A stretch of DNA of 32,000 nt from Candidatus Methanoperedens sp. (GCA_027460535.1 JAPZAR010000020.1:1-32000), one strand, 5' to 3'. Counted from the first letter of the stretch, positions 900 to 26,325 are shown. Numbers and translations: made by a program. Notes: generated by a model not told the origin, from the letters alone.

Positions 900-1211
900 T
901 CATAACATTTTCTTTAGTTTATCTATTCTTATCGATTTGTAAATATTAATAAAGTTCGATTTCATCTTTACATCTATAAAAACATTTCTAATGTTCCCTC
1001 CTATGAACTGGCCTGAAGCAAAAGATAGCATAAGAAGTGGTATGATCGTCCAACTGAAACCAGATATTATCCTCAACAGAAATACTAGAGGAACTGGTAG
1101 ATGTATAGCCATCATCCACTGCCTGGAAAACCTATCGGCCTTGGATCTCCAGTAACCGAAGGGTATATTGATTAATAATACTACCAATATTAATTCAATT
1201 AGCGAAAGCAT
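900..1211 (-). CDS. Small hydrophobic membrane protein (about 3 TM segments), function unknown
   Basis: 103-aa ORF with clear hydrophobic helices (LILVVLLINIPFGYW, VPLVFLLRIISGF, IIPLLMLSFASGQFIGG). A GGAGA sits about 10 nt upstream of the ATG. It lies 211 nt downstream of, and co-oriented with, the cytochrome operon. No family was recognised. Confidence 0.45.
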   Translation of the reverse strand: MLSLIELILVVLLINIPFGYWRSKADRFSRQWMMAIHLPVPLVFLLRIISGFSWTIIPLLMLSFASGQFIGGNIRNVFIDVKMKSNFINIYKSIRIDKLKKML

Positions 1212-1422: not shown

Positions 1423-2820
1423 CTATTGTGCACCAGCATGACAGCTTAAGCAATTGTCACCTCCAAGACCTCCTGCTGATGTTACCGTTGTCAGAACCTG
1501 TGTAAAATTAGTATATGAAGAATTCTGGACAGAAACGGCTATTACCGTAGGTGTGTTATATGCTCCTCCTGCTGCCGTACTATTTGCTGTAACCTTAAGA
1601 GTAGTTTTGTTGCTACCTCTGGCAGGTACGTAAATCGATGTCCTGCCGAGCACTGATGGTGTTATAAAGTTCGTTGAATCCGAATCAGATACTGCGAGAG
1701 TATAATCTCCATTTGCATTACCGGTATTATTTACAGTAATATTATATGTATAATTACCTCCCTGAGTTATAACAGCAGATATCGGTGATGCCATTATTGT
1801 AACATTGTACGTGGGAGTAGATGGTGCCGTAACAGTCTCAGTAACATTGAAACGACCGCTATTCGCGTTAGTTCCCAGATATATTCTTCCTCCACTTGAG
1901 GTTGTTACCGAGACTTTTAGTGCAAGATATGATCCCGCTGGGGCAGTGAAATTAATGCTGCTCAGATCTATGATATAGCTTTGACCGTATCGAGAAGATA
2001 CTGCCTGCGTCTTGTATCCTAAAGATTTGAAAGTGCCCTTCTGAGCATAACCCAGATCAAAGCGGTATGTTGCAGTATAGCCACTTTTTTGACTCGACAA
2101 ATTAAAAGTAGCATCTGTTTTGCCTGCTATCGTTGTATTCGAACTATAATTTGTCGGTGAAATTGCTAAAAATTGATCACCGCTTTTAGTGGTGGTCAAA
2201 TAATCGATATTACATCCGAATCCTGAACTACTGAGTGAAGTAATCTTATAAGATGTTGGATGAACACCGCAACTTCCCCAGTTGGCTTTATAGCCTGAAG
2301 AACCTATGGCAACTGAAGAAGGAGTCCAATAATACGTCTTATCTGAGGCACTTGCAGCATTAATAAAAGGTATACCGTTATCTGTATACATTCCGGTGTT
2401 TCCGTGACATATATTACAGGCTACTCGAGCAATCTTTACTTTATCAATATGCCCAGTTGCCAATGGAGCACCATATCCTCCTGCACCTGTATGACAATTC
2501 TCGCAAGGAGCTGGTGTCTTAAAGTTTGCTGGATGGCCACTAACAGGTTGCGTACCATCTCCATGACATGCCCAGCATTTCTTGTCCTCTGCATTTACAG
2601 TCGAAGATGCTTCTTTGTTCAAACTCTTATGTCCTGAATTATTTGCAACACTGAAGTTGACATGTTCAGGTGCATAACCTCCATCATCCATACACTTCTT
2701 ACAGTCAGGACCTCCTCCTGCACTTGCCGCATTAATGGAAAATACTATTGAGAAAAATATAATCGAGAATATTACACTTCGTCCCAATATTTTATATTTT
2801 TTATTATTTTTATATTTCAT
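1423..2820 (-). CDS. Secreted tetrahaem c-type cytochrome with a CARDB/DUF11-like beta domain and a haem motif at the extreme C-terminus
   Basis: Sec-type signal peptide (MKYKNNKKYKILGRSVIFSIIFFSIVFSINAASA). Four CxxCH motifs: CWACH, CENCH, CNICH, and CLSCH, which lies 4 residues from the C-terminus. A CARDB-like stretch is present (GGNYTYNITVNNTGNANGDYTLAVS). The start ATG overlaps the upstream stop (ATGA at 2817-2820). Confidence 0.85.
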   Translation of the reverse strand: MKYKNNKKYKILGRSVIFSIIFFSIVFSINAASAGGGPDCKKCMDDGGYAPEHVNFSVANNSGHKSLNKEASSTVNAEDKKCWACHGDGTQPVSGHPANFKTPAPCENCHTGAGGYGAPLATGHIDKVKIARVACNICHGNTGMYTDNGIPFINAASASDKTYYWTPSSVAIGSSGYKANWGSCGVHPTSYKITSLSSSGFGCNIDYLTTTKSGDQFLAISPTNYSSNTTIAGKTDATFNLSSQKSGYTATYRFDLGYAQKGTFKSLGYKTQAVSSRYGQSYIIDLSSINFTAPAGSYLALKVSVTTSSGGRIYLGTNANSGRFNVTETVTAPSTPTYNVTIMASPISAVITQGGNYTYNITVNNTGNANGDYTLAVSDSDSTNFITPSVLGRTSIYVPARGSNKTTLKVTANSTAAGGAYNTPTVIAVSVQNSSYTNFTQVLTTVTSAGGLGGDNCLSCHAGAQ

Positions 2821-4724
2821 GATGACCTCCCAATTCTTATAATTCCTGTCGAACCTCTACCTCTATCTTGATATGGTATAAATTCAATATCGAGCTCAGG
2901 TGATTCAATATTCATATTGAAATTTACGACCTGTGATTTTTTGAGTTTATATTTGGAGGATAGATCCTTTCTAAGGACACCATTTTCATAGACATTCACA
3001 TCAATTTTTGATAGTTTGCTATTTGTTATGGTTATTGAATAGTCTCCATTTAAAAGAGAAACTTGCTTCGCATTTTTACTTGACGAATCTGACTTAACGA
3101 CGAGATTTAATATGACTTCAACCATATTTTTATCTTCAGCTATATTGTTGCTCGCATCATTGTCAGCACTGGTCGATTTTACTTCAACTCTATTTGTGTA
3201 GTTTCCTATGGTTGTATTTGGTACTGTATAACTGACATTGATATTTGCCGTGCCATCTCTTGGCATAGTTCCCAGATCGCAGGTAAAGTTAATCGCTGTA
3301 TCACAAGTTCCCTGAGATGGTGCAACAGTACCCCGGATAAATCCGTCGGGCCATGTATCATATACCTGTACACCTGAGGCGTCCGAAGGACCATTGTTAT
3401 TTACAGTAATAGTATAAGTATAGGTCTTCCCGTCTCCTGCAATGATATTGGATACGGCTTCGTTTTCAGTTATCGATAGGTCAGCATTAGCAGATGCCGA
3501 TGTTCCAAGAAGAGCTTTAGATGCATCTACTATGCCATATCCATAGGTATCATCCTTACCCGGAATTCCTGCATCAAACGCTGTACTATCAATTATCTGC
3601 CTGACATCTTTATTGTCTCTTTTTCCATCTCCATTGACATCAGCAAAATTTGTTGAAAATATCAGAGCCGCCACACCTGTCACATGTGGAGCCGCCATAG
3701 ACGTTCCGCTCAAAAGGCCATATCCTTCTTGTAGACAATGAGTTGTGTCAGCAATAATACATACCGTAGAATTTATTTTTACCCCGGGCGCCGCAACTTC
3801 GATCTTCTGATCTATTGGAGAGAAACTTGCTCTTTGACCATTCTGATCTATAGCCGTCACAGCAATAACAGAATCATATGCCGCAGGGTATAAAACAGGG
3901 CCTCCTCCAGTATTTCCTGCCGCTGCCACTAATAATATGCCAGAATCATATGCGGAATTAATCGCATCGAGTAGAGCAGTATTATTTTCAGGACTTCCAA
4001 GGCTCATGGAAATGATATTCATTCCATTGTCTTTCGCCCATTCTATGCCAGAAATGATTGAACTGGCAGTACCAAAACCGCCTCCGTCCAGTACTTTGAC
4101 TGCATATATGCTTGCCTCCGGTGCTGCTCCTACAACTCCAATACCATTATGTTCTGCAGCAATAGTACCAGAAACATGCGTTCCGTGACAAGTCCTATAG
4201 AATGATAGACAATTGTCATCCCATGGATCAGGATCGTTGTTTACAAAATCGTATCCACCTTTATAATTTCCTGCCAGGTCTGGATGGTTATAATCAATTC
4301 CTGTATCGAACACAGCTATTTTTACTCCAGTTCCATTGACATTTTGGCTATGTACGGGCTCACTACCGATATACTGGACCCCCCATGAACTGGAATATTC
4401 ATCTGTTGTCCTGAAGATAGTGTCGTTCACTATATATTTGATTCTGGAATCTTTTTTCATCTCTTCGATTTTGTCTTCAGGTATTCTTGCCGAAACTGCA
4501 TTTACCAGATGAAAATCTTTTTTCACCTTACCGCCATGACTTTGGACCTGTTCCTCTTCTGAAACTCCAACAGGCTTTTGATAACCAATTATAACGTCAC
4601 GATCTGCGGCAAGTGCTATTCCACTCAAAATAATGATAATAGCACAGGAATGTAGAGTAACCTTCAGAATCGCTCTACCTTTTTGTGGCAGTTTATTTTT
4701 ATTTGAAAGAAAGGATAAAGACAT
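2817..4724 (-). CDS. Secreted subtilisin-like serine protease (peptidase S8) with an I9-type propeptide and a C-terminal DUF11/CARDB-type domain
   Basis: The catalytic triad contexts VFDTGID (Asp), HGTHVSGTIAA (His) and SGTSMAAPHVTG (Ser) are present, with oxyanion AAAGN. The propeptide-like N-domain reads VIIGYQKP...HLVNAVSARIPEDKIEEM. The DUF11-like repeat reads KTYTYTITVNNNGPSDASGVQVYDTWPDGF. I place the start at ATG 4724 (MSLSF..., signal peptide ...IIIILSGIALAA), which has GGAGGA 8 nt upstream. The ORF-track start at 4817 would overlap the upstream gene. Confidence 0.9.
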   Translation of the reverse strand: MSLSFLSNKNKLPQKGRAILKVTLHSCAIIIILSGIALAADRDVIIGYQKPVGVSEEEQVQSHGGKVKKDFHLVNAVSARIPEDKIEEMKKDSRIKYIVNDTIFRTTDEYSSSWGVQYIGSEPVHSQNVNGTGVKIAVFDTGIDYNHPDLAGNYKGGYDFVNNDPDPWDDNCLSFYRTCHGTHVSGTIAAEHNGIGVVGAAPEASIYAVKVLDGGGFGTASSIISGIEWAKDNGMNIISMSLGSPENNTALLDAINSAYDSGILLVAAAGNTGGGPVLYPAAYDSVIAVTAIDQNGQRASFSPIDQKIEVAAPGVKINSTVCIIADTTHCLQEGYGLLSGTSMAAPHVTGVAALIFSTNFADVNGDGKRDNKDVRQIIDSTAFDAGIPGKDDTYGYGIVDASKALLGTSASANADLSITENEAVSNIIAGDGKTYTYTITVNNNGPSDASGVQVYDTWPDGFIRGTVAPSQGTCDTAINFTCDLGTMPRDGTANINVSYTVPNTTIGNYTNRVEVKSTSADNDASNNIAEDKNMVEVILNLVVKSDSSSKNAKQVSLLNGDYSITITNSKLSKIDVNVYENGVLRKDLSSKYKLKKSQVVNFNMNIESPELDIEFIPYQDRGRGSTGIIRIGRSS

Positions 4725-4728
4725 ATAT

Positions 4729-6150
4729 CTATCCTCCTGTGACCTGTGTAGAATTGGCGCCATATATGCTGTTGACTGTTGCTGTATCTCCAATCCTTGC
4801 ATCCGGACTCGTGACATTAATAGACGTTTCTGACCAATTTGTAACTTGGACAGATCGGAACGTAGTTACGTTATTGATCGTAACATATGTCCAATTATTG
4901 TATGCAGGATCGTATGTCCCAAATCCTGAACCGTTGATCGTAACTGTCTTAGATATAAGTGTAGATTTAAGTATTGCAGAGTTGACGATGACTTCCGGCC
5001 CAACTACAAATGGTCTTTTATTACTTTCTTCATTTCCATCTTTTATAAGATATATTGCGTACAAACCTTTATTCAGTGGTGGTATCGTTACAAAAATCTC
5101 ATGATCGTTTATTCTAGTCGGATTTATTGTAATATTACTTATGGTTGTTCCGTTTTTAATAACTCCTTTAGTAAGGGCTACAATTGATGACCGAGTGATA
5201 CCATTAACTGTTGTCACAAAGTTTTCTCCATGGATTGTCAGGTTCGTTGTCTCTCCTAAAAGTGCCTGATTTGTACTAAGGTGGTCAATAGTTGGTACGA
5301 TAAGGTCAGATCCTGGCGCTAAACTGCCTGCTACATACCATGCATGACAACCTTGGCAATCATTTGGTCCAAGATGACCAAAGCCTGACTGCGAAGATGT
5401 ATTGGCAATGTCCCACTGAATATTATGTATGGCATTTATACTATGACATCTCTCGCAAATTCGTATAGAGGAAGGCCCATTCGCCCCATCATGGTTATCA
5501 TGGCACAATTCACATTTTGAGTTGTTCTGATTAATGAATCCACTCAAATTTCCTAAGCTGTGATGTGTCTTATTATTACTGGCTATGAAAGGAGTGGCTG
5601 TTAAATCCTGTCCATGACATGATTCACAACCCCCCCATTTCTTGCCACTTGTTAGATTGATTACTTTAAAAGTTGCATTGGGTGTCAAATTGGATAGTGG
5701 GGAAGTAGCTATATAGTGTCCATCGTTAATATTATCTACCAGACTTCCATGACAGGCTTGACAATTTCCAATCGTTGCAGCTTGTGTTTCGTGATGCTGT
5801 CTTCGAATATTCATCCCGTTAAAGGTATTATTATGGCATTGTATACAATTCCTAACCATTGTAATACCAGTCCCATCTGGAAGAACAGGGTGACAATCTG
5901 TACATTGAAATGGCTGACTTGTGTACCGATTTATAGCATGGTTCGCTACAAGGTTATGATGCGTGTCTGGTACACCTGAGGCATGACAAACTCTGCACAT
6001 TGTCTCATTATAATTAATCAACAATGTATCATAAATACCCATATTTTGATTAACTGGTGGCGCCGGAATAGCAGCAAATGCCAGACCTACCAGTATCAGG
6101 CCTACTGTCATGGGCAATAAATAGTTTAATATAAAATGTTTTTTATTCAT
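4729..6150 (-). CDS. Secreted octahaem c-type cytochrome with C-terminal IPT/TIG-like Ig domains
   Basis: Signal peptide ...LILVGLAFAA. Eight CxxCH motifs: CRVCH, CTDCH, CIQCH, CQACH, CESCH, CELCH, CERCH, CQGCH. The C-terminal half has IPT-like repeats (PTIDHLSTNQALLGETTNLTIHGENF; TVTINGSGFG). I count 18 N-x-S/T sequons by hand. GGAGTGA sits 4 nt upstream of the ATG. Confidence 0.9.
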   Translation of the reverse strand: MNKKHFILNYLLPMTVGLILVGLAFAAIPAPPVNQNMGIYDTLLINYNETMCRVCHASGVPDTHHNLVANHAINRYTSQPFQCTDCHPVLPDGTGITMVRNCIQCHNNTFNGMNIRRQHHETQAATIGNCQACHGSLVDNINDGHYIATSPLSNLTPNATFKVINLTSGKKWGGCESCHGQDLTATPFIASNNKTHHSLGNLSGFINQNNSKCELCHDNHDGANGPSSIRICERCHSINAIHNIQWDIANTSSQSGFGHLGPNDCQGCHAWYVAGSLAPGSDLIVPTIDHLSTNQALLGETTNLTIHGENFVTTVNGITRSSIVALTKGVIKNGTTISNITINPTRINDHEIFVTIPPLNKGLYAIYLIKDGNEESNKRPFVVGPEVIVNSAILKSTLISKTVTINGSGFGTYDPAYNNWTYVTINNVTTFRSVQVTNWSETSINVTSPDARIGDTATVNSIYGANSTQVTGG

Positions 6151-6335
6151 TATTTCACTCCTATCCTATCCATACAAAATTGAAATAATCGATATTTCCA
6201 TAATTTCAAATATCTAAGGGAATATTTTTCTTGAACTCCTTGTTTTAATTCACTTTACCTTATTTTGTTTCTCATTCTATCCTATTTTTATTGATTATAA
6301 CATCTTTTTAAATCATCTTATACAAATTAAGAATC

Positions 6336-6376
6336 AAAAAAATATAAAGGAATTAATTTTAAATAATCAATTCCTT
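6336..6376 (-). terminator. Hairpin plus T7 tract downstream of the 610-aa octahaem gene (read on the minus strand)
   Basis: 6347-6358 (aaggaattaatt) pairs with 6365-6376 (aatcaattcctt): 12 bp with 1 mismatch and a 6-nt loop. On the minus strand it is followed after 4 nt by TTTTTTT (plus-strand A7 at 6336-6342). Oligo-T is the archaeal termination signal. Confidence 0.45.
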
Positions 6377-6454
6377 CTAAATTCATATTTTGCCAGTTTT
6401 TTATTCTTATTTTATTTTCCTCATTTTGTTTTGTCTTTCAATTCATATTTCCAT

Positions 6455-8287
6455 TTACCTCGATATCTGGAAGTTGTTGTCGCTCATATCTGTATACAAC
6501 GAGTTGCTTGTGCTTGTTATTCTTATCTTGTAGTTAGTTCCGGTTGACTGGACGCGAGGAATATTCCAATTATAGGGACCAGTATTCGAAGCACTCTTTG
6601 CAATTGTGCTCACTACTGATGTGCCTTTAAGAAGTTCTATCTTTACACTTCCACCAGGATTACCTACAGATGTCCAAGTTATTGCGTGAGTCGTACCGCG
6701 CTTCCAATTTTCTCCTCCATTTGGAGAAGTAACTGTTATAGACGGTGTAGGTGTCGGAGTACCACCCACTATTGTAGCCGTTGCTTGTCCACTATCTGCA
6801 GTTATCACTGTTACCGTATCTCCTGCTGCTACCGAACCGGATAATGTTGCTACTATCTGTGTATCGCTCCAGCTGGTGATGCTGTCAGAATAATACACAT
6901 TTCCTGCATGATTGAAAGTGACATATTGCTGAGCATTTGTTGCCGGTTGGCTTCCTAATCCAGTTCCTGAGATAGTTAGAGTTCCGCCATTCAATGTCGC
7001 TGAATTTATTGTCACTTTGCTTACCACTGTCAACGGTTTAATGTCGCTTGGTTTGGGCACATTCTCTACAGCATCGGTTTTTACAACCTTGATATAATGT
7101 GCACCTGCTGCCAGATTTACTGTAACAGTTATCTGCCCATTTGATATGACATCTGGAGTGAGATTTGTCTTATCATCTATATTCACAACGGTTGTAGCGC
7201 CAGTCTGCACGAAGTTGGTACCTGTGAGCGTCACAACTGTCGGAGTATTGGCGTTGAATACAGTCGGATTTGCCAACTGAACATCTGGAACAATAGCTCC
7301 TGCGAATGGATTCACATCACCGGCATCATACCATGCATGACAACCCTTGCAGTCCCATGAATGGTTTGCCGGATCTGAAGGATTATTTGAACCTATGTGA
7401 CCATATCCACGTAATGTACTGGTATTGGCAAAGTCATACTGAACATTATGAATAGATCTCACGCTATGGCACGTTTCACATCCTCTGACATTAAGAACAT
7501 CTGATATATCGACATGGCACCATGTGCATTTATCGAATATTTGTGTCGGTCCACCAGTTATTCCAAGTATCTCATTGTGGTGGGCATTATTATTACCAGT
7601 TGCATTTGGCGGGGCACTATATACTCCACCGATGGGACACGGCTGTCCACCAATCCCACAAACTACTTGAGTAAAGTAAATCGGCGGATTTGCTAATGCA
7701 TTCTCCGAATGGCAAGCTAAACAACCTCCCCATACTCTCCCAGAAGTACTGTTGAAGGCTTTGTATAATGCACTGGGTGTCACCTCGCTTGGAGGATAAG
7801 GAGGAATGTAATGTCCGTCATTATAATCATCCACTGATGCGCCATGACAGAATTTGCAATTTCTTGCCTGTGCATGCGTAGTGTTGTGATGGGGCCTGGT
7901 GAAGTTACTTACATGTGCGCCAAGGGAATCGCCCCAGAAAGGAGTACTATTATGACAATCCATGCAATTTCTATCTATTAATATTCCAAATCCTGAACCT
8001 GGTGTTGACGGATGACAGTCTTGACATCCAAATGGTTGGCTTGTGCTTGGATTTATAGCACTCGTTGCAACAAGATTGTGGTGCCTAGTTGGCACTCCGC
8101 CAGTCACCAAGGGACTGGATGTAGAATTATGACAACCTCTGCACAGAGGCTCAGTATAGTTAATCATCATCGTATCGTAAATACCGAAATTCTGATTAAC
8201 TGGTGGCGGCGGAATAGCAGCAATTGCTAATATTGCCAAAAATGCCAGAGCAAAAATCGGTATCAAAATTTTTCCTTTAATTTTCAT
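6455..8287 (-). CDS. Secreted octahaem c-type cytochrome with IPT/TIG-like domains and a C-terminal Kre9/KNH-like Ig domain
   Basis: Signal peptide ...AFLAILAIAA. Eight CxxCH motifs: CRGCH, CQDCH, CMDCH, CKFCH, CLACH, CTWCH, CETCH, CKGCH. It has an IPT-like PDVQLANPTVFNANTPTVVTLTGTNF, a TPTPTP linker, then ITVTSPNGGENWKRGTTHAITW...YKIRITS. It is a paralogue of the 473-aa and 670-aa genes. Confidence 0.9.
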   Translation of the reverse strand: MKIKGKILIPIFALAFLAILAIAAIPPPPVNQNFGIYDTMMINYTEPLCRGCHNSTSSPLVTGGVPTRHHNLVATSAINPSTSQPFGCQDCHPSTPGSGFGILIDRNCMDCHNSTPFWGDSLGAHVSNFTRPHHNTTHAQARNCKFCHGASVDDYNDGHYIPPYPPSEVTPSALYKAFNSTSGRVWGGCLACHSENALANPPIYFTQVVCGIGGQPCPIGGVYSAPPNATGNNNAHHNEILGITGGPTQIFDKCTWCHVDISDVLNVRGCETCHSVRSIHNVQYDFANTSTLRGYGHIGSNNPSDPANHSWDCKGCHAWYDAGDVNPFAGAIVPDVQLANPTVFNANTPTVVTLTGTNFVQTGATTVVNIDDKTNLTPDVISNGQITVTVNLAAGAHYIKVVKTDAVENVPKPSDIKPLTVVSKVTINSATLNGGTLTISGTGLGSQPATNAQQYVTFNHAGNVYYSDSITSWSDTQIVATLSGSVAAGDTVTVITADSGQATATIVGGTPTPTPSITVTSPNGGENWKRGTTHAITWTSVGNPGGSVKIELLKGTSVVSTIAKSASNTGPYNWNIPRVQSTGTNYKIRITSTSNSLYTDMSDNNFQISR

Positions 8288-8367
8288 TTTTGCCTATCCT
8301 CTTTTTTCTTTTTCTATTTTCTGTTTTTTTTCTTTTCTTTTTATATATCCTGCATGAATGTAAAATT

Positions 8368-8405
8368 AAAAAAATTGAAAGAAGAGATCATTCATCCCTT
8401 CTTTC
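8368..8405 (-). terminator. Hairpin plus T7 tract downstream of the 670-aa octahaem gene (read on the minus strand)
   Basis: 8377-8384 (gaaagaag) is the exact reverse complement of 8398-8405 (cttctttc), with a 13-nt loop. On the minus strand it is followed after 2 nt by TTTTTTT (plus-strand A7 at 8368-8374). Confidence 0.45.
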
Positions 8406-8421
8406 TAACTTACAATTTTTT

Positions 8422-10434
8422 TTACGGTTTCACGATGCTGAATACGCTGTCGCTAGTATCCTTGTATATCGTGTATGTCTGACCTTTGGCGTTTACGCTT
8501 GTTATTCTTACCTTATAGGTTGTTCCTAGTGCCTGGGTACCAATCGCCCAACTATAGGTACCAGAGTTCGCAGTGCTAATTGTTTTCTTAACACTCGTTC
8601 CTAGAAGGATTTCTATCTTTACATTTGCTCCCATCTGACCAACTTTTGCCCATGTTATCGTCTGAGTGGTTTTTTGTTTCCAGGTCTCTCCTCCATTTGG
8701 AGAAGTAACTGTTATTCCTGGTGTTGGTGTTGATACTACAATAGCTGCCGCTGCATCTCCAGCGTCCGCAGTTATCACTTCTGCCGTATCTCCTGCTGCT
8801 ACTGTACCAGATACTGTTGCCACTATCTGTGTATCGCTCCAGCTATTGATACTCGCAGAATAACCTGCATGGCCGACAATGACATATTGCTGAGCATTTG
8901 TTGCCGGTTGACTTCCGAATCCAGATCCGGAAAGAGTTAAGGTTGCGCCGTTCAATGTCGCTGAAGACAAAGTGACCACTGGCACAACAGTCAATACTGA
9001 CAGTTTGCTTAGCGTGTCTGGGCCTTTCACAAGTTGCAGTTGATGGATTCCTGCGCTCAGTGCCGGAATGCTGACTACTATCTGCGTATCTGTCTCAGAT
9101 GTTGGTGTATATGTCACTCCATCTACAGTTACTACAGATGTATAGGCATCATTCACGAAGTTCGAACCTGTGATGGTAAGAGTCGTTGCAGTGTTTACAG
9201 CTATTACTGACGGGCTTATACTATCCACTGTTGGAATAATAGGTCCTGAGAACGGATTTGTATCTGCTGGCAGCCATGAATTGTGGCATCCATAACAATC
9301 TGTATTATTTCCTACGTGCCCAAGTCCTTGGGTTGTACCTGCACCAGCAAGTTCGATATTATGGATACTTTGCACACTATGGCATTTCTGACAACCTGTA
9401 CCATTAATGGTAATATTAACGGTACCTGGTTCAAATGATCCGTTAGCTGCGTCCTTCGCCTCGATAGTTGAGTTTCTAAGTTCCAGTGAACTAGGTAAGA
9501 TTTCACCAGTAAATGGATTGATTGCGGTGAATGTCTCGCCTGGATATATTACATGGCACCAGCTGCAAACTGCACCCGGGGTCCTGCCTCCAAGAGTTCC
9601 ATATCTACCACTTACATTCACAAAACCGTCCAGAATTGTCTGGTGATGGCTGTCGTGGTTGTCCAGAATTGGTGTCCCAGTATACAAGCCTTTTGCAGCT
9701 AAACTGTTATTGTTTGATGCATTTACCGTACCCAAATGGCATGATTCGCAACCTCCCCATGTCTTATTTTCCAAAGTGGTGCCATCCGAATGGTAGAGTG
9801 TAGTGGGTAATGGTTGTAAGCTGGTGATCTTAAATGTGGCGAACGGGGTTATCATGAAGTCCGTAGCATACGATGGTACATAATGACTGTCGTTGTAGTT
9901 GGCTACGAAACTGCCGTGACAGATCTTACACTGCCTGGCCGCTACAGGATTTCCAATATTCGCATCATCATATGTTGTATTGAAGTGATGCGGTCTGCTT
10001 AAATTGCCCACATGGCCGCCAATGGAATTTCCCGTGAAATTGTTTGCTGGATTATGGCAATCTGTACAGCTACGGTCCAACAATATTCCATTTCCTACTC
10101 CTGGGGTCGGTGGATGGCAATCTCCACATCCGAATGGAGCATTGGTAAGCGGATTTATCGCATTTCCTGACAACAGTCTGTGATGTCTTGTTGGTACGCC
10201 ACCAAGGACATTACCGTATCCACCAGGGGTGTTTGTTCCTGTCGTTTGATGGCAGGCTCTGCACGCATTCTGGTCTGTTGCATTGGTTTGGAAAAATGCT
10301 ATCGAAGTATCGAATATACCAAGGTTCTGCGGCACCGGCGGTGGTGGTGGCGGTGGCGGTGTTAACGCCCAAGCTAAGCCGACAAACGCCAGAAAGACGA
10401 CAGCGGCCGCTAAATACAATTTTTTATTTTTCAT
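8422..10434 (-). CDS. Secreted octahaem c-type cytochrome with a polyproline N-terminus, IPT/TIG-like domains and a C-terminal Kre9/KNH-like Ig domain
   Basis: Signal peptide ...AFVGLAWA followed by LTPPPPPPPPVPQNLGIFDT. Eight CxxCH motifs: CRACH, CGDCH, CTDCH, CKICH, CESCH, CSWCH, CQKCH, CYGCH. It has an IPT-like PTVDSISPSVIAVNTATTLTITGSNF and a C-terminal ITVTSPNGGETWKQKTTQTITW...YKVRITS. GGAGA sits 8 nt upstream of the ATG. Confidence 0.9.
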   Translation of the reverse strand: MKNKKLYLAAAVVFLAFVGLAWALTPPPPPPPPVPQNLGIFDTSIAFFQTNATDQNACRACHQTTGTNTPGGYGNVLGGVPTRHHRLLSGNAINPLTNAPFGCGDCHPPTPGVGNGILLDRSCTDCHNPANNFTGNSIGGHVGNLSRPHHFNTTYDDANIGNPVAARQCKICHGSFVANYNDSHYVPSYATDFMITPFATFKITSLQPLPTTLYHSDGTTLENKTWGGCESCHLGTVNASNNNSLAAKGLYTGTPILDNHDSHHQTILDGFVNVSGRYGTLGGRTPGAVCSWCHVIYPGETFTAINPFTGEILPSSLELRNSTIEAKDAANGSFEPGTVNITINGTGCQKCHSVQSIHNIELAGAGTTQGLGHVGNNTDCYGCHNSWLPADTNPFSGPIIPTVDSISPSVIAVNTATTLTITGSNFVNDAYTSVVTVDGVTYTPTSETDTQIVVSIPALSAGIHQLQLVKGPDTLSKLSVLTVVPVVTLSSATLNGATLTLSGSGFGSQPATNAQQYVIVGHAGYSASINSWSDTQIVATVSGTVAAGDTAEVITADAGDAAAAIVVSTPTPGITVTSPNGGETWKQKTTQTITWAKVGQMGANVKIEILLGTSVKKTISTANSGTYSWAIGTQALGTTYKVRITSVNAKGQTYTIYKDTSDSVFSIVKP

Positions 10435-10514: not shown

Positions 10515-11016
10515 TAATTCAGATCGATATCAATCCTTGATAATGATCCTCCTCTGTATATGATCTAGTAGTAGTATGCACGAATCTCAATTTGATTGCA
10601 TTATGATCTATTATGGTTGTACTGAATTCATCATTCATGTTTTCGCCCTATCCCGCGTTTTTCTCAGGACACTTGAGTTTTCCTATCCATTCAACTCTCA
10701 ATCCTTTCAAAGGTCAGTGTCATGATTGCTCATTAGGATATAATGCAACTTTTAATCTCAAAACCATATTTATGGATAAGATAGTAATTGATAATTATTA
10801 AGTTGCATCCTATCCTAACTATTATTCCCACTCTATATTAGTTTAAATAATTGTATGGATAAAACATATATGGGAATTAATATCCTATTCTAATAATAAT
10901 TCATATATAGGAAAGATGTATTTTTTTTCTAGTAATAATCAAAATATGAAAAAGATGTATATCTTAACTATCCAGTAAATATCATTGCGCAGTTTTCAGC
11001 AAAAGAAATATCAGAA

Positions 11017-11268
11017 TTACTTCGTCATAACCGTATTAATGTCATCCAATTTTTTCAACAATTCTTTCCCCTCGCTTGTCAGAATATATTTATCCTCATC
11101 AGTACGGTCAATAAAATTTTCATTCATTAAAAATTCTAAATGTTTATTGAAGTTTTTCCAATCAATATAAGCCTTATGCATAATTCGCGTCTTCTTAGCA
11201 TCTTTCTCCACTTGTATTATCTTGAGAATTTCTCTGATAATTTCCCATCGACTTCTATAATTGCTCAT
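11017..11268 (-). CDS. Small winged-helix DNA-binding protein (HTH_45-like archaeal wHTH)
   Basis: 83 aa. The pattern RSRWEIIREILKII....KKTRIMHKAYIDWKNFNKHLEFLMNENFI....KYILTSEGKELLKKL matches the small archaeal wHTH family (PF14947-like). This comes from motif memory, not from a search. Confidence 0.7.
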   Translation of the reverse strand: MSNYRSRWEIIREILKIIQVEKDAKKTRIMHKAYIDWKNFNKHLEFLMNENFIDRTDEDKYILTSEGKELLKKLDDINTVMTK

Positions 11269-11303
11269 GCCACAGTCCTATCCGGTTGATAATATGCCTC
11301 ATT

Positions 11304-20092: not shown

Positions 20093-21349
20093 ATGGCAAC
20101 GAAAAAATGGACAGTTCTGGTATACCTCGCAGGTGATAACAACCTCGATGAGGATGGAGCAAGAGATCTTGCAGAAATGGCAAAAATAGGGTCTAATGAC
20201 AATATAAACGTAGTTGCCCAGTTTGACAGGGCAGGCAAAACTGGAACACAAAGGTTCTACATCACTAAAGGCGGCGGATACCCAAAAGACAGCATTGCAG
20301 ACCTCGGTGAAACCAACACAGGCGATCCCAAAGTACTGATAGATTTCTTGAAATGGGGCATCACGGCATATCCGGCTGAACATTACATGGCAGTACTCTG
20401 GAACCATGGTAGTGGATGGAACGAGGACGACGTCTATGACAGGGCGGTAAAGGTTAGTCCTGAGAAAGAAAAATTCCCGCTGATGGCAAAGAGGGCTTTC
20501 CGTGATAAAAGGATAAAGAAGGTGATGTTCAGCACCACAATGGATGAAATATTGAGCCAGCCGGCAGCATTAAGAGGCATCCTTTATGATGACGAATCAA
20601 AGGACTTCCTTGACAATGCTGAAATGAAGAACGTACTCATCGAAGCTGCAAAACTGACCCCTAACAAGCGTTTCGATATAATAGGTTTTGATGCCTGCCT
20701 GATGAATACGGTAGAAGTGGCTTACCAGCTTAAAGATACAGCAAAGGTAATTGTTGGATCAGAAGAAACAGAACCAGACGCAGGGTGGCCATACGACAGT
20801 GTTCTTGGTGCCCTTGCTGCAAATCCTTCCATGAGCCCGCAGGAATTTGGCAAGGCAATAGTGGATCTGTATATAAGATCCTACGATAAAGGCGTTAACA
20901 GCGAACCTGTAACAATGGCAGCTGTCAATCTCGATAAGATATCTGCTCTGATATCAACTATAGATAAATGTGCTGTTGCTCTTAAAAAGAATATTGCGGC
21001 CCAAGATACGTTCAATGATATAATGCTCTGTTCTGAAAATGTACAGAAGTTTTATTATCGAACATATAAGGATATTTTCGACTTTGCAAAACTAATCAAG
21101 GAAAAGTCAAAAGTTAAAGAGATACAGGACACATGTGCAGGTGTAATGGAAGCATTGAAACCTTCAGACAATAGTTACGTAATAGCTTCAATGTCTCTCA
21201 CCACAAATATGGCGAATGCCCATGGTGTCTCTGTATATTTCCCTGGACGCGAAAGCTACACCAAGTATTACGACAGGCTTGACTTTGCAAGAAAGAGCAA
21301 GTGGGATGAATTCATAAAAGCATACCAGAAAGCGTATGATACGTATTAG
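20093..21349 (+). CDS. Clostripain-family (C11, clan CD) cysteine peptidase with no signal peptide
   Basis: KWTVLVYLAGDNNLDEDG at the N-terminus. The catalytic His context is AVLWNHGSGW and the catalytic Cys context is IIGFDACLMNTVEVAYQL. These are the characteristic C11 motifs. Confidence 0.9.
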   Translation: MATKKWTVLVYLAGDNNLDEDGARDLAEMAKIGSNDNINVVAQFDRAGKTGTQRFYITKGGGYPKDSIADLGETNTGDPKVLIDFLKWGITAYPAEHYMAVLWNHGSGWNEDDVYDRAVKVSPEKEKFPLMAKRAFRDKRIKKVMFSTTMDEILSQPAALRGILYDDESKDFLDNAEMKNVLIEAAKLTPNKRFDIIGFDACLMNTVEVAYQLKDTAKVIVGSEETEPDAGWPYDSVLGALAANPSMSPQEFGKAIVDLYIRSYDKGVNSEPVTMAAVNLDKISALISTIDKCAVALKKNIAAQDTFNDIMLCSENVQKFYYRTYKDIFDFAKLIKEKSKVKEIQDTCAGVMEALKPSDNSYVIASMSLTTNMANAHGVSVYFPGRESYTKYYDRLDFARKSKWDEFIKAYQKAYDTY

Positions 21350-21829: not shown

Positions 21830-23089
21830 GTGTGTGGTGTGAAACGAATAATAATATGGCTGCTTGCCATGCTGGTAATTGTTAGTGCTCCAGGCATGGC
21901 TGCTCCGGACCTTTCGAATTCAGGTGGAGGAAGCTGGCAGTATTACAGAGATGTAAATATCAGTGAAAAATCTGGTTCCACTCTGACTGATTATCAGATA
22001 CATTTACAGCTTTCAAGCAACAATTTCACCAACGGTGCACAAATCTACGGTGAAGACATAAGGTTCATGGATGCGAAAGGGAATGAATTGAGTTACTGGA
22101 TTGAGTATTGGGATGCCATTGCAGGAAGCGCAAGAATGTGGGTGAAAGTGAACATACCGCAGAGAGGAAGCACGGGTATTCGAATGTATTATGGAAATCC
22201 TAATGCGAGCAGCTCAAGCAATGGCAGCAGGACTTTTATATTTTTTGATGATTTCCAGAATAACGATCTTGCTGCGAACTGGGAAATATATACGATAAGG
22301 TATAATATTTCATCAGAAGGCCTCAAAACATCGCAAAACTTTTCGGAAAACAGCCTGAATGTTAGTGAATTTGAGGGGCAGCAGATAATATCTGGAAGTA
22401 CTTTGAGAAATTCTGATTATGAATACGGCAAAGGATTAAGGACAGTAAAAAGCTTTACACCGCCGTTGATCTATGAGATAGACCGCATCTCAATAAATCC
22501 ATTGGGGGATGGAGTGCTGGGATTCATCCATTTATATCAGGACGACAATAACTGGTATAGTTATGGCGGTGGAATTAACAGGAAAAATGAGGAACACAAA
22601 ATATTCAGAGTGTCCAAAATATCAAGAGTCCCGCTTGAAACATTCAGCGATGATGTTGGAGACATAGATGATTATGGTTTCCATGTATTCAGGATCGTGC
22701 ATGACGGAACAAACGTTAAGTTCTATATGGATAATGTTCTTGAAGTCTCAGAGAATGTTTCAACTTTAAATAATCTGAAAATAGGAACATCTTCCTGGTT
22801 AAAGACAGATGTTTCAACTATTAAAGTAGTATTTGATAATGCAAGAGTCCGCAAATATGCCACCCAGGAACCGACCATAGAAGTCGGGCCTGCCATACCA
22901 ATTGCAACTCCAACTCCACTTCCCACCACACCTCCGACTCCGCTTCCCACCACGCCTCCGACTCCGCTTCCCACCATATCTCCGACTACCACCCCAATTA
23001 TAGACCCTGCAGTTGCGACCATAGTTACAGCATTAATTGGAGCAATAGCTTCAATCATTGTAGCTGTTTTAGCGCTAAAGAAAAAATAG
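21830..23089 (+). CDS. DUF2341 domain surface protein with a LamG/concanavalin-like region, a Pro/Thr linker and a C-terminal TM anchor
   Basis: The DUF2341 pattern is present: WQYYRDVNISE...LTDYQIHLQL...GEDIRFMDAKGNELSYWIEYWD...ARMWVKVNIP...IRMYYGNPNA. The PT linker is TPTPLPTTPPTPLPTTPPTPLPT. The C-terminal helix AVATIVTALIGAIASIIVAVLALKKK follows. The start is GTG 21830, or more likely GTG 21839 (MKRIIIWLLAML...). Confidence 0.85.
   Translation: MCGVKRIIIWLLAMLVIVSAPGMAAPDLSNSGGGSWQYYRDVNISEKSGSTLTDYQIHLQLSSNNFTNGAQIYGEDIRFMDAKGNELSYWIEYWDAIAGSARMWVKVNIPQRGSTGIRMYYGNPNASSSSNGSRTFIFFDDFQNNDLAANWEIYTIRYNISSEGLKTSQNFSENSLNVSEFEGQQIISGSTLRNSDYEYGKGLRTVKSFTPPLIYEIDRISINPLGDGVLGFIHLYQDDNNWYSYGGGINRKNEEHKIFRVSKISRVPLETFSDDVGDIDDYGFHVFRIVHDGTNVKFYMDNVLEVSENVSTLNNLKIGTSSWLKTDVSTIKVVFDNARVRKYATQEPTIEVGPAIPIATPTPLPTTPPTPLPTTPPTPLPTISPTTTPIIDPAVATIVTALIGAIASIIVAVLALKKK
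22907..22990 (+). repeat. 24-nt coding tandem repeat (3 copies plus a partial) encoding the TPPTPLPT linker
   Basis: Copies lie at 22907-22930, 22931-22954 and 22955-22978, with a partial copy at 22979-22990. Copies 2 and 3 differ at 2 of 24 nt. Confidence 0.8.
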
Positions 23090-23310: not shown

Positions 23311-26300
23311 TTAAAGAGTAATCGCAAATTCAAGCTCTTTCTCCCCGGCCAGGTTCTTTCTCAATATCCTGACTTTTATAGTATCACCTTCCTTTTTATC
23401 AAACATAGAGATCTTTACATCCTCTATGCCCTCGATTTTCCAGTCATCAATGGAGATGAAGATATCATCTTTTTTGAGCCCTGCTTTCTCTGCGACGCTA
23501 TCATTTTCGACATCGACTATTCTGACCCTGCCATCTGCTTCCGTGAGGAAAATCCCAATCTGCACGGCAGGTAGCGGCGGTATGGGTTTCGGGAAAAGCA
23601 CAAAATTCCCCACATCTTCATCAGTGCTCTCCGAACCCTGTATCAATGTTGCATAATCTTTACCGTTTAGCCTGAATGCGCGTTTCGGGATACCCGAACC
23701 ATACATAATATGTCCGGAACCGGCAAGTACAACAATCTGGTAATCCGGGTTCTGTTTCAGGAATTCATCCACTGAATGAGCCATGGTTTCATCCCAGAGT
23801 ATCTGGGACTGGTAGAAATAGTTAAAGTTTCCGAACCCTTGATCTCCATGCTGGTCGAAAATCTCTTTAAGACTTTTTTTGTAATCCTCATCCGACATAT
23901 CCATATCCTTGGGGATTTGTTTTTTTTCCTCATCAGTCAGGACGTCAAGACCGCCTTTTGTAACATTTTCAATGATCTCTGACCGAAGATTAAGGGCTAC
24001 TACAGGGATATTCTTTGCTTTTGCAAAATTAATAATCTCCCTGTAAAGATTATAATCATATCCCCACCTCTTGAAATACTGGGTTTGTTTCAAAAATTCC
24101 TTTTCAGTTATATTTCCGGCGATATAATCATCTATAGCCTTCTGGAACGGTTTCTGGAACATCTCCATGCCAATGGCAAACTTATGTCCCTTCTCAGAGA
24201 GGTTCATAATAATCGAAAGCTGCACCTTATGTTCTTCATAACTGTCATGTGTTTCTCCGATATAGATAATAGTCTTGTCAGAAATATTGCGGACGATCTC
24301 ATCGAGTTTAATTGTCTTTTGAGGCTGGATCCCCAGCACGGGCTCGTATAAACTAAGCCTTATCCCATTTTCGGTTCCATCTGTTTTATTCTCTACATTC
24401 TTACCTTTTTCAAACCTTATAAGAGAATATTGCCCGTAGTGAAATATCTTTCTTGACGCAAGGTCAACCTCCTCTTTTGAATCTCCCTCGGCAACAGCTA
24501 TCACCTTTGAAGTGTTCAGGGGATTTTCAGCTACGGCAAGGCTGAATCCCGGCCCTGGCATTTTCCATCCGCCGAAGAGCCTCTTAAGAATCGGGCTGTC
24601 AGAACCTAACACGAGAATGGAAGATGCTGTTATATCTTCATCTTTAATTTCCTTTTCTTCCTTTGCGATAAAACCCTCACCTTTGAAAACGTTTATTAAA
24701 TCCTCATATTTTTCTTTATCTTTTTCAGGGATAACGATGAGCCTTTTTTCATCTCCCAGGAGCCTTGATATAACAGGCGGGGTTTCTTTTTCCGAAAGTC
24801 TGCGCATTAAGTCGTAGTCGCCGTCAAAAACCATTTCTTGAGGGGTCCCGTTTGAAGGGACCTCAAACGTCTCATTTTCCTTTCTTATTTCCAGTATCTT
24901 TGTGACTTCACCTTTATCTGTATTTATCTTGAGCGGTAGATTGAATTCATACGGCTCACCTTCCTGGATAACCTTAAAAGATGTTGTTGGGACGCCATCC
25001 AGGACGACCACTCTCTGGTCTTCTACATTGATTGATATCGCCCCTTTTCTGTAAAGCCACTGGTTGAAAAACCGCTCCAGGTTCCTGCCTGAGGCGTTTT
25101 CAAAGGCTATTTTCACATCATCCCATGTTGCGTCCTGAGATGCCTTTTCTTTGATAAGTCCCCTTAATCCCCTGTAGAATGCATCGTCTCCTATCTCGTT
25201 ATTAAGCATATGGAATAACATTGTCCCCTTTCCATAGCCAATTGCCTCGGATGCGAAATCCGTCCTCTGGAAGAAATCTGCAAGTTTAGTCTCTTTATCA
25301 GGTTTAACATAGCTCTGATAATCGATGAGGAGTTTCTTCCTGTACTGCTCACCCTCGCCTTTCTGTTTTTCATAAAGATAGTCGGACTGGTAAGTAGTCA
25401 GCCCCTCTATCCAGTTTCCTTTTTCAAAGTCATCGTAAACGTAATTTCCAAACCACTGGTGCAGGATCTCATGTCCCAGGGATGTATTGACAATGAATGG
25501 AAGACGTATGACATCCCTGCCCAGGAGTGTAAATGTGGGCATTGAATACCCTGTGGGAAGAACGTTCTCAACGACGGAAAACCGTTTGTACGGGTAAGGG
25601 CCTATAAGCTCCTCATACATCTTCATGTATTTCTTTGTATATTCGATGTAAGTATCTGCTCGTGAGATGTCTTCAAGATATCCAATAATGTCATGTGAGA
25701 TGTTGCCAGGGAAAAAATATACATAAATGTCTACACCATGATATGTTTCTTTCCGTATCATGTATTTGCCTGCAACAAGGTTTATTTTATGCAGAGGGTA
25801 AGGAAAGTTGGAGGTATATTCCATACCCCGCGATGTATTCTCAGCAGTAATCCCATCCGCCTCGGAGACTGCACTAAAACCTTCCGGAAGGAGCGCCTTC
25901 AAATGATAATATGCTAAGTTGTCTATACGTGGATACCATATTCCTGTCAGGGATATTCCCTCATCACTGATAATATCATTTGAGACTACGCCGGCATTTT
26001 GAAGATTTTCATTTGCATTTACTTCCCCAGGCTTATATTCGAAAAATACTTCAAGAGTGCCTTTGCCTTTTACCTTGAATATCCCCTCTTTGATCTGAGG
26101 CTCCAGAGGCAATCCGTTTAGCATTACAGAGGTGATTTTGAGGTTTCCGGTAGAAATGTTCATCTCCCTGTTTTCTGAAAGGGTAGTCGTTGAGACGCCT
26201 TTGAGAAGATTTTTTGAAATATCGAACGAGACAGAGAGGTTGCAAAACGGAAGGTTTTCCGCTGCCGCTACATTGGATATGAAAACTCCACTCACGAGAA

Positions 26301-26325
26301 GTGCAATAAATAGTATGATTTTCAT
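23311..26325 (-). CDS. Secreted multidomain protein: M1-family zinc metallopeptidase, a ChaN/Tiki-superfamily (Cofac_haem_bdg) domain, and a C-terminal PDZ domain
   Basis: Signal peptide MKIILFIALLVSGVFISNVAAA. The M1 zinc site is GHEILHQWFGNYV...WIEGLTTY. The usual GxMEN exopeptidase motif is replaced by GYSMP. The ChaN-like segment is IIYIGETHDSYEEHKVQLSIIMNL...FAIGMEMFQKPFQKAIDDY...NIPVVALNL. The PDZ-like segment is VRIVDVENDSVAEKAGLKKDDIFISIDDWKI. Confidence 0.85.
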   Translation of the reverse strand: MKIILFIALLVSGVFISNVAAAENLPFCNLSVSFDISKNLLKGVSTTTLSENREMNISTGNLKITSVMLNGLPLEPQIKEGIFKVKGKGTLEVFFEYKPGEVNANENLQNAGVVSNDIISDEGISLTGIWYPRIDNLAYYHLKALLPEGFSAVSEADGITAENTSRGMEYTSNFPYPLHKINLVAGKYMIRKETYHGVDIYVYFFPGNISHDIIGYLEDISRADTYIEYTKKYMKMYEELIGPYPYKRFSVVENVLPTGYSMPTFTLLGRDVIRLPFIVNTSLGHEILHQWFGNYVYDDFEKGNWIEGLTTYQSDYLYEKQKGEGEQYRKKLLIDYQSYVKPDKETKLADFFQRTDFASEAIGYGKGTMLFHMLNNEIGDDAFYRGLRGLIKEKASQDATWDDVKIAFENASGRNLERFFNQWLYRKGAISINVEDQRVVVLDGVPTTSFKVIQEGEPYEFNLPLKINTDKGEVTKILEIRKENETFEVPSNGTPQEMVFDGDYDLMRRLSEKETPPVISRLLGDEKRLIVIPEKDKEKYEDLINVFKGEGFIAKEEKEIKDEDITASSILVLGSDSPILKRLFGGWKMPGPGFSLAVAENPLNTSKVIAVAEGDSKEEVDLASRKIFHYGQYSLIRFEKGKNVENKTDGTENGIRLSLYEPVLGIQPQKTIKLDEIVRNISDKTIIYIGETHDSYEEHKVQLSIIMNLSEKGHKFAIGMEMFQKPFQKAIDDYIAGNITEKEFLKQTQYFKRWGYDYNLYREIINFAKAKNIPVVALNLRSEIIENVTKGGLDVLTDEEKKQIPKDMDMSDEDYKKSLKEIFDQHGDQGFGNFNYFYQSQILWDETMAHSVDEFLKQNPDYQIVVLAGSGHIMYGSGIPKRAFRLNGKDYATLIQGSESTDEDVGNFVLFPKPIPPLPAVQIGIFLTEADGRVRIVDVENDSVAEKAGLKKDDIFISIDDWKIEGIEDVKISMFDKKEGDTIKVRILRKNLAGEKELEFAITL

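Follow-up and report, generated by a model that had tools for sequence, protein, structure and literature searches.

A Candidatus Methanoperedens gene cluster homologous to the Geobacter omcZ-ozpA module, with three tandem OmcZ paralogues

A 32,000-nucleotide stretch of DNA from Candidatus Methanoperedens sp. (GCA_027460535.1 JAPZAR010000020.1:1-32000; hereafter the window, at its full length) carries between positions 1,423 and 10,434 a cluster of five genes, coding for three secreted octahaem cytochromes (A, B and C), a secreted subtilisin-like protease of family S8 (referred to as S8) and a further multihaem cytochrome (D). The analysis of this cluster indicated, with a probability of about 95%, that it is the Methanoperedens homologue of the omcZ-ozpA module of Geobacter, carrying three tandem OmcZ paralogues. 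The cluster and the Geobacter pair are homologous in both proteins and share conserved haem ligands, domain order and gene adjacency. The OmcZ/OzpA system, with its reading as a nanowire module, is already known in Methanoperedens, and the local variations described here are minor; such clusters have been published for Methanoperedens, Borgs and ANME-2 archaea (PMC10874420, 10.1101/2023.08.01.549754, PMC9012536, PMC9473688), and the novelty implied in an earlier note made from the sequence alone is thereby lost.

Homology of the octahaem cytochromes to OmcZ

All five genes are co-oriented on the minus strand, as first described. Paralogue A (8422..10434, 670 aa) consists of a signal peptide, a core of eight CxxCH motifs with long insertions, two IPT/TIG domains and then a Kre9/KNH-like immunoglobulin-like (Ig) domain; B (6455..8287, 610 aa) likewise presents a signal peptide, an eight-CxxCH core, two IPT/TIG domains and then a Kre9/KNH-like Ig domain; and C (4729..6150, 473 aa), the paralogue resembling an OmcZ orthologue, has a signal peptide, an eight-CxxCH core at residues 27-278, a linker and two IPT/Ig domains. 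The motif counts and the Pfam TIG matches bore out the claim that all haem motifs are N-terminal and followed by two to three haem-free Ig-like domains, since each protein has exactly eight CxxCH motifs (before residues 385, 318 and 270 in A, B and C, respectively), with the TIG domains placed after the haem region and the third, Kre9/KNH-like domain present in A and B. Cysteines outside these motifs were limited to two in B.

The relationship of these proteins was assessed by phmmer against all PDB sequences, with matches considered up to E-values of 1-10. All three cytochromes matched Geobacter sulfurreducens OmcZ and essentially no other PDB sequence. The matches to the 473-aa precursor sequence (8d9m) had E-values of 1.3e-56 for C (residues 18-469 against 14-463), 7.1e-47 for B and 2.3e-38 for A, and those to the 258-aa filament form (7lq5) of 1.4e-32, 3e-27 and 1.7e-11, in the same order. 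Besides every haem motif, the alignments include the mature N-terminus (AIPAPPVNQ aligned to AVPPPPVNQ), the linker and the two Ig-like domains, the tails of A, B and C aligning to OmcZ residues 285-463. A kinship of the haem cores with OmcS, OmcE or the archaeal extracellular cytochrome nanowires (ECNs) was rejected, as no such chains were found among the PDB matches of A, B and C; none appeared either among those of D over the same range of E-values.

The AlphaFold model of C, computed without haems, reached a mean pLDDT (predicted local distance difference test) of 76.6, with a core that was only moderately confident (pLDDT 55-83), followed by a disordered linker and two beta-sandwiches. 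A Foldseek search with this model retrieved the OmcZ nanowire 8d9m as top match (E 3.7e-8, target-normalised TM-score 0.60, 33% identity), the remaining matches being tandem Ig domains that corresponded to the tail. The comparison of the octahaems with known filament cytochromes that had been proposed beforehand, by sequence and by structure, therefore led to OmcZ for A, B and C with phmmer, and for C with Foldseek.

Across 81 homologues, the eight CxxCH motifs were invariant, except for C213, the first cysteine of motif 6, which was conserved in at least 90%. Eight non-motif histidines were also invariant (64, 65, 119, 120, 196, 197, 242 and 259 in C numbering), including the HH pairs 64/65, 119/120 and 196/197, and all eight align to OmcZ histidines. 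These residues are the putative distal haem ligands, and their invariance and alignment fit the eight intra-subunit bis-His haems of OmcZ (PMC9473688). Taken together, the sequence comparisons identify A, B and C unambiguously as genuine OmcZ homologues over their full length.

One departure from Geobacter OmcZ concerns the second haem-binding motif in the sequence, which is a canonical CxxCH in A, B and C and CX14CH in Geobacter, where the long loop contributes to the subunit interface (PMC9473688). The absence of this loop was considered as an argument against filament formation and dropped, because the atypical loop occurs in only 15 of 146 OmcZ homologue clusters, canonical being the majority state, and because OzpA cleavage triggers OmcZ assembly in vitro also with a canonical-CxxCH OmcZ variant (10.64898/2026.07.18.739370).

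An OzpA-type subtilisin downstream of the octahaem genes

The S8 gene (2817..4724, minus strand) codes for a 635-aa protein made of a signal segment, an I9-like propeptide, a catalytic domain, a DUF11 domain and a C-terminal domain. The catalytic domain matched Pfam Peptidase_S8 with an E-value of 5e-63 and retains D140, H180 and S342 as the catalytic residues, with N271 in the oxyanion position, behind a hydrophobic, signal-like N-terminus; both the signal segment and the intact Asp/His/Ser triad had been noticed earlier. The propeptide (about residues 41-130) scored 19.0 bits against Pfam Inhibitor_I9, whose cut-off is 21.2 bits, and aligned to pro-subtilisin E and to the orthologue of Geobacter hydrogenophilus. 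It is followed by the catalytic domain (131-397), the DUF11 insertion (415-530) and the OzpA-type C-terminal domain (538-622; 2859..3113, minus strand). The start of the gene was placed at the ATG at 4724, 4 nt past the stop codon of C and with AGGAGGA immediately 5′ of it, in agreement with public gene calls; a 666-aa open reading frame reaching 4817 and overlapping C was discarded as an upstream extension of the 635-aa protein supported by this ATG and by those calls.

Over 391 aa that include the propeptide, S8 shares 45% identity with the S8 protein encoded just downstream of the omcZ homologue in G. hydrogenophilus (locus L043 of the survey described below). Moreover, a profile built from the C-terminal tails (about 95 residues) of 33 OmcZ-linked S8 proteins, all bacterial, matched residues 538-622 in hmmsearch with a domain E-value of 5.6e-17, and the same profile matched the S8 proteins of seven other Methanoperedens loci (L001, L003, L004, L005, L018, L019 and L021); the C-terminal domain is thus common to OmcZ-linked bacterial S8 proteases and to these archaeal proteins, the pairwise match to that of G. 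hydrogenophilus being weak. In a BLASTP comparison within one database, the scores of S8 were 281-616 bits with all the complete OmcZ-linked S8 proteins, above the 240 bits obtained with subtilisin E, the margin being modest for the most distant bacterial OmcZ-linked members. The DUF11 insertion between the catalytic and C-terminal domains was common to the closest Methanoperedens loci. By these sequence comparisons, S8 is assigned to the OmcZ-linked (OzpA-type) group of S8 proteases. The earlier note had claimed no homology to OmcZ or OzpA, and in this it was too cautious, given the E-values of 1e-56 to 2e-38 against 8d9m and the 45% identity and shared tail domain of S8.

Conserved linkage of the cytochrome and protease genes

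The synteny of the pair was surveyed from an OmcZ-family alignment, with one genome per species, at 78 loci, 27 of them archaeal (L001-L024, L031, L032 and L045) and 51 bacterial (among L025-L078). A locus was taken as informative when at least 3.5 kb of sequence was available downstream of the haem core, which was the case for 66 loci. In 59 of these 66, the cytochrome gene was immediately followed by an S8 gene of the same orientation; these comprised 18 of the 22 archaeal loci and 41 of the 44 bacterial ones. The median distance between the end of the haem core and the match of the S8 catalytic domain was 998 nt. A lack of synteny between S8 and octahaem orthologues in related genomes had been named beforehand as grounds for refuting the proposal, and the linkage was in fact observed at most of the archaeal loci where it could be seen. 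Across the 59 loci, the identities of the cytochrome core and of S8 to the window proteins co-varied with r = 0.88. This co-variation, together with the homology of both proteins to the bacterial pair, indicates that the two genes were inherited or transferred as a unit.

These results decide against a convergent origin, in which the pairing of octahaem and subtilisin would have arisen in archaea with no relation to OmcZ or OzpA. Nothing except the shared architecture speaks for such convergence, and it is refuted by the full-length OmcZ homology, by the homology of the protease including the family-specific C-terminal domain and by the co-variation over the 59 loci. Consequently, the idea of an OmcZ/OzpA-like module, in which a cognate subtilisin accompanies an octahaem precursor, was upheld by the full-length homology, the membership of S8 in the OmcZ-linked group and the synteny, while its companion, that the module had been independently assembled, was overturned by the homology of both proteins to the bacterial pair and by their co-variation.

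The array of three paralogues was also found in related Methanoperedens loci. The A-B-C order is kept in L004, with identities of 58%, 79% and 66%, respectively, followed by an S8 gene (84%) and a gene of the D family, and the array is partly kept in L021, L002 and L003; in L021, the A-type orthologue is 56% and the B-type orthologue 69% identical. The tails vary among these proteins, as the A- and B-type proteins of L004 are devoid of the third domain.

Within the window, the overlapping or abutting arrangement that had been reported for the cluster holds for C-S8-D only, where S8 starts 4 nt past C and the ATG of D overlaps the stop codon of S8 (ATGA); A and B are separated by 134 nt and B and C by 304 nt, and the A-B spacer contains a hairpin with a T-run plus a TATA-like box. 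C and D each have a 100% identical counterpart in the annotation of a metagenome-assembled genome of Candidatus Methanoperedens sp.; public calls begin C at M14, so that its 460-aa form is on record and the 473-aa form is without an exact record.

Cytochrome D and the substrate of the protease

Cytochrome D (1423..2820, minus strand, 465 aa) presents a signal segment, a degenerate CKKCM motif in the place of the CKxCH of its homologues, three CxxCH motifs, beta-rich modules and a terminal haem motif, NCLSCHAGAQ. Its earlier description as a tetrahaem is right by count, with three N-terminal CxxCH motifs and one placed 4 residues before the stop codon, but its sequence marks D as a short member of a giant multihaem cytochrome family. 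In L001, L003 and L004, the position of D is taken by 25- to 38-haem cytochromes that share the modules of D (L001 4028-10093, L003 13245-16931 and L004 13236-17489), and the start of each overlaps the stop codon of S8, as it does in the window. All members of the family carry a terminal NCLxCHAGAx haem motif 4-5 residues before the stop codon. The family is limited to Methanoperedens (18 matches), and its sizes range from 465 aa with four CxxCH motifs to 2021 aa with about 37 haems. A stand-alone tetrahaem family was rejected, since the N-terminal modules and the terminal haem motif are common to the 1053-2021-aa cytochromes found at the same operon position. The shortness of D could reflect either a real contraction or a collapse of repeats in the assembly.

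The coupling of D to the protease gene raises an alternative in which S8 would mainly mature D or its giant relatives, or would act as a general extracellular protease, the adjacency to OmcZ being secondary. It would agree with the overlap between the S8 stop codon and the start of the next cytochrome gene (D in the window, its 25- to 38-haem relatives in L001, L003 and L004), and also with the DUF11 insertion, which is specific to this clade. Nevertheless, the D family is restricted to Methanoperedens, whereas S8 follows OmcZ in 59 of 66 bacterial and archaeal loci, most of them without a D homologue, and the protease retains the OzpA-type C-terminal domain; a main role of S8 outside OmcZ processing is thus very improbable.

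A different extension of the OmcZ/OzpA reading would be a distinct archaeal variant in which A, B and C are all substrates of one DUF11-bearing OzpA-type protease, giving several nanowire types or mixed filaments, and in which D or its 25- to 38-haem relatives, together with a small membrane protein of 103 aa, replace the isomerase of the bacterial operons as assembly, anchoring or charging factors. Such a variant is a speculative and rather doubtful possibility.

Predicted maturation and nanowire formation

By extension from the Geobacter system, the homologous OmcZ/OzpA module may operate in this archaeon through a complete nanowire pathway, which is considered probable, with clearly less confidence than the homology itself. 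Each OmcZ-like precursor would be exported and loaded with eight bis-His haems, and its C-terminal Ig-like tail would keep it monomeric. The co-translated and secreted OzpA-type subtilisin would strip off its own propeptide and then cut the exposed linker that separates the haem core from the Ig-like tail, in C putatively near the VAGSLA-PGS junction. The freed core of about 32 kDa would polymerise into a conductive extracellular filament, serving electron export during methane oxidation. Cleavage, cut position, polymerisation and conductivity are all projected here from what is known in Geobacter.

Candidate cut positions were transferred by alignment to the FGNSS(284) site of Geobacter (PMC9473688, 10.1101/2023.08.01.549754). 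The linker of C, AWYVAGSLAPGSDLIVP (5293..5343, minus strand), follows the last haem motif and precedes the first Ig domain, with the cut predicted after VAGSLA(278), and in the model of C it has no regular secondary structure (pLDDT 52-64). The equivalent cuts are predicted by alignment after DAGDVN326 in the linker of B, AWYDAGDVNPFAGAIVP (7286..7336, minus strand), and after LPADTN393 in that of A, NSWLPADTNPFSGPIIP (9232..9282, minus strand). The predicted masses of precursor and core are 53 and 32 kDa for C, 67 and about 37 kDa for B, and 72 and 44 kDa for A; those of C are close to the 50 and 30 kDa of the Geobacter OmcZ precursor and core (PMC9473688).

Several observations weigh against this mechanism. 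The linker sequences are unlike the FGNSS site of Geobacter, and an S8 gene was absent at four archaeal OmcZ-homologue loci with room for one. The haem cores are rich in N-x-S/T sequons, with 14 in A and 9 each in B and C, against 0-1 in the tails of A and B. Geobacter OmcZ is reported to lack glycosylation (PMC9473688); in the window proteins, glycosylation of these sites, if it occurs, could disturb filament packing. In 39 of the 51 bacterial loci, the gene after ozpA codes for a prolyl isomerase of the PpiC/SurA type; no isomerase of this type was detected in the window or within 10 kb at any of the 27 archaeal loci by tblastn and with a profile of 37 bacterial isomerases, a search that left other isomerase families aside. 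The tails, in turn, are well conserved across domains of life (81 homologues; PMC9012536), and may have a role beyond their removal. The core sequons and the missing isomerase gene are the strongest points for caution on the mechanism.

A rival reading is that A, B and C are homologues of OmcZ, and S8 of OzpA, working without nanowires, so that the cytochromes would be monomeric or associated with the S-layer or matrix and keep their Ig tails for anchoring or adhesion, with long-range transfer left to giant multihaem cytochromes or archaella. According to a 2026 review (PMC13046784), OmcZ-type filaments are yet to be seen in Methanoperedenaceae, and the conductive-archaellum model is still open; an OmcZ-like paralogue of Geobacter itself, GSU1334, was not found in filaments (PMC9473688). 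The conservation of the tails and the missing isomerase gene point in the same direction, together with the giant-cytochrome-family gene translationally coupled to the protease gene in this clade. On the other hand, the conserved haem ligands, the linker length and the dedicated protease would be hard to explain if processing had been lost, and wires are still formed by a Geobacter OmcZ into which residues of a homologue from the archaeon Methanogaster were engineered (10.64898/2026.07.18.739370). A function without filaments is therefore regarded as unlikely, though well ahead of a main role of S8 in maturing D.

For the export of electrons over long distances by methane-oxidising archaea, OmcZ-type nanowires are the foremost candidate, and the question whether Methanoperedens makes them was raised by the published clusters and not by this window. 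To those clusters, the present analysis adds details for one clade, namely the cut sites and product masses predicted for the three paralogues, a C-terminal domain particular to OmcZ-linked S8 proteins by which they can be told apart from generic subtilisins, the lack of the bacterial isomerase gene throughout the archaeal loci examined, and the conserved coupling between the protease gene and a multihaem cytochrome gene with variable repeats.

Comparison with known systems

The closest characterized system is the pair OmcZ (GSU2076) and OzpA (GSU2075) of Geobacter sulfurreducens (PDB 7lq5 and 8d9m). The window proteins share with it eight haems and the conserved distal histidines, a signal peptide ahead of a mature N-terminus of the form AxPPPPVNQ, two IPT/Ig domains after a linker and, directly downstream, an S8 protease with the same C-terminal domain; the C precursor even equals the Geobacter OmcZ precursor in length (473 aa). 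The identity to OmcZ is nevertheless only about 33%, and the window has three tandem paralogues instead of one, of which A and B carry core insertions and a third Ig-like domain. The protease of the window bears the DUF11 insertion, the PpiC-type isomerase gene is missing, a multihaem cytochrome gene is coupled downstream, and the archaeal envelope has no outer membrane.

According to Wang et al., omcZ-ozpA operons are widespread in Bacteria and Archaea (PMC9473688). In Methanoperedens, Ouboter et al. (2024) reported that an OmcZ homologue (Metp_02468) and an OzpA homologue (Metp_02469), clustered with 37- and 15-haem cytochromes, were upregulated on electrodes (PMC10874420). In L001, which comes from the isolate METP1, the haem core of the OmcZ homologue shares 69% identity with that of C, and the S8 catalytic domain 81% with that of the window protease. 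Two cytochromes are also encoded there, one of 2021 aa with 36+2 motifs and another with at least 12. Given the name of the isolate and the agreement in haem counts, L001 is probably the published cluster. Like the window, it presents OmcZ, S8 and then a cytochrome gene overlapping the S8 stop codon, as well as the same 103-aa membrane protein, and it differs in that the 2021-aa cytochrome of about 37 haems and that of at least 12 stand in the place of the 465-aa D of the window, with its four CxxCH motifs. The window has A- and B-type paralogues upstream, whereas the L001 stretch starts too near the C-type gene to show such paralogues fully.

Conserved OmcZ-peptidase clusters were described in a preprint on Borgs and their Methanoperedens hosts (10.1101/2023.08.01.549754). 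The window resembles them in the combination of an OmcZ homologue with a subtilisin-like peptidase, PDB 3whi being the best match of both peptidases, and some of those clusters likewise are without the non-canonical CXnCH motif or have extra beta-domains in the tail; a conserved isomerase is reported there (10.1101/2023.08.01.549754), in contrast to the window, where it was undetectable. Very close OmcZ homologues were also reported in ANME-2a, 2b and 2c by Chadwick et al. (2022), who inferred interdomain transfer (PMC9012536). These belong to the same family, and ANME-2c loci such as that of Methanogaster E20 (L012) have an S8 gene directly downstream, but they differ from the window in their 39-44% identity to C, in being single-copy and in their shorter or different S8 tails, and an ANME-2a locus (L024) has no adjacent S8 gene.

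Other polymerising extracellular multihaem cytochromes include the nanowires of Pyrobaculum calidifontis and Archaeoglobus veneficus and OmcS and OmcE of Geobacter (as cited in PMC13046784). The window cytochromes differ from all of these in haem count and have no sequence similarity to them in the PDB searches. To our knowledge, no dedicated protease step exists for the archaeal ECNs, OmcS or OmcE.

Neighbouring genes and sequence elements

A possible accessory gene on the minus strand (900..1211), next to D on its downstream side, codes for the small membrane protein of 103 aa, whose membership in the system is uncertain. Copies about 90% identical occur within the OmcZ clusters of L001 (10187-10420) and L021 (11437-11667), and the protein is conserved more strongly than the cluster cytochromes; neither L003 nor L004 has it in the flanks, and Pfam and NCBIfam searches assigned it to no family. 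On the opposite side of the cluster, 5′ of A, an 83-aa winged-helix protein of the helix-turn-helix (HTH) type (HTH_45/Sso10a-like; 11017..11268, minus strand) matched Pfam with an E-value of 1.6e-22 and the NCBIfam family Sso10a_fam with an E-value of 1e-19. A copy of this gene, 73% identical, adjoins the OmcZ cluster in L002, and the protein may be a local regulator or a chromatin protein.

The heptamer GGATAGG was observed in the window in seven copies, all of them on the cluster strand, intergenic and just 5′ of C, B, A and the HTH gene (6160-6171, 8293-8299, 10647-10815 and 11277-11283, minus strand). The count by itself is not significant in the window (7 observed against 3.3 expected), and it is the placement alone that is notable. 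In L001, L004 and L005, the heptamer lies 16-19 nt 5′ of the start of the C-type omcZ gene, and it could be an element resembling a ribosome-binding site or a site for a regulator.

The other genes of the window include those for MutS and ribosomal protein S15, and the G+C content of the window is about 41%; these chromosomal-type genes and the G+C content suggest that the window derives from the host chromosome rather than from a Borg. The minus-strand gene at 23311-26325 codes for a 1004-aa protein in which a Peptidase_M1 domain is fused to a haem-binding domain of the ChaN/Tiki type (Cofac_haem_bdg, E 1.6e-64), with a PDZ domain at the C-terminus. A clostripain-family (Peptidase_C11) protein (20093-21349, plus strand) and a DUF2341 protein (21830-23089, plus strand) are encoded a few kb from the cluster, and add to an unusual local density of peptidases and of proteins of secreted or surface type.

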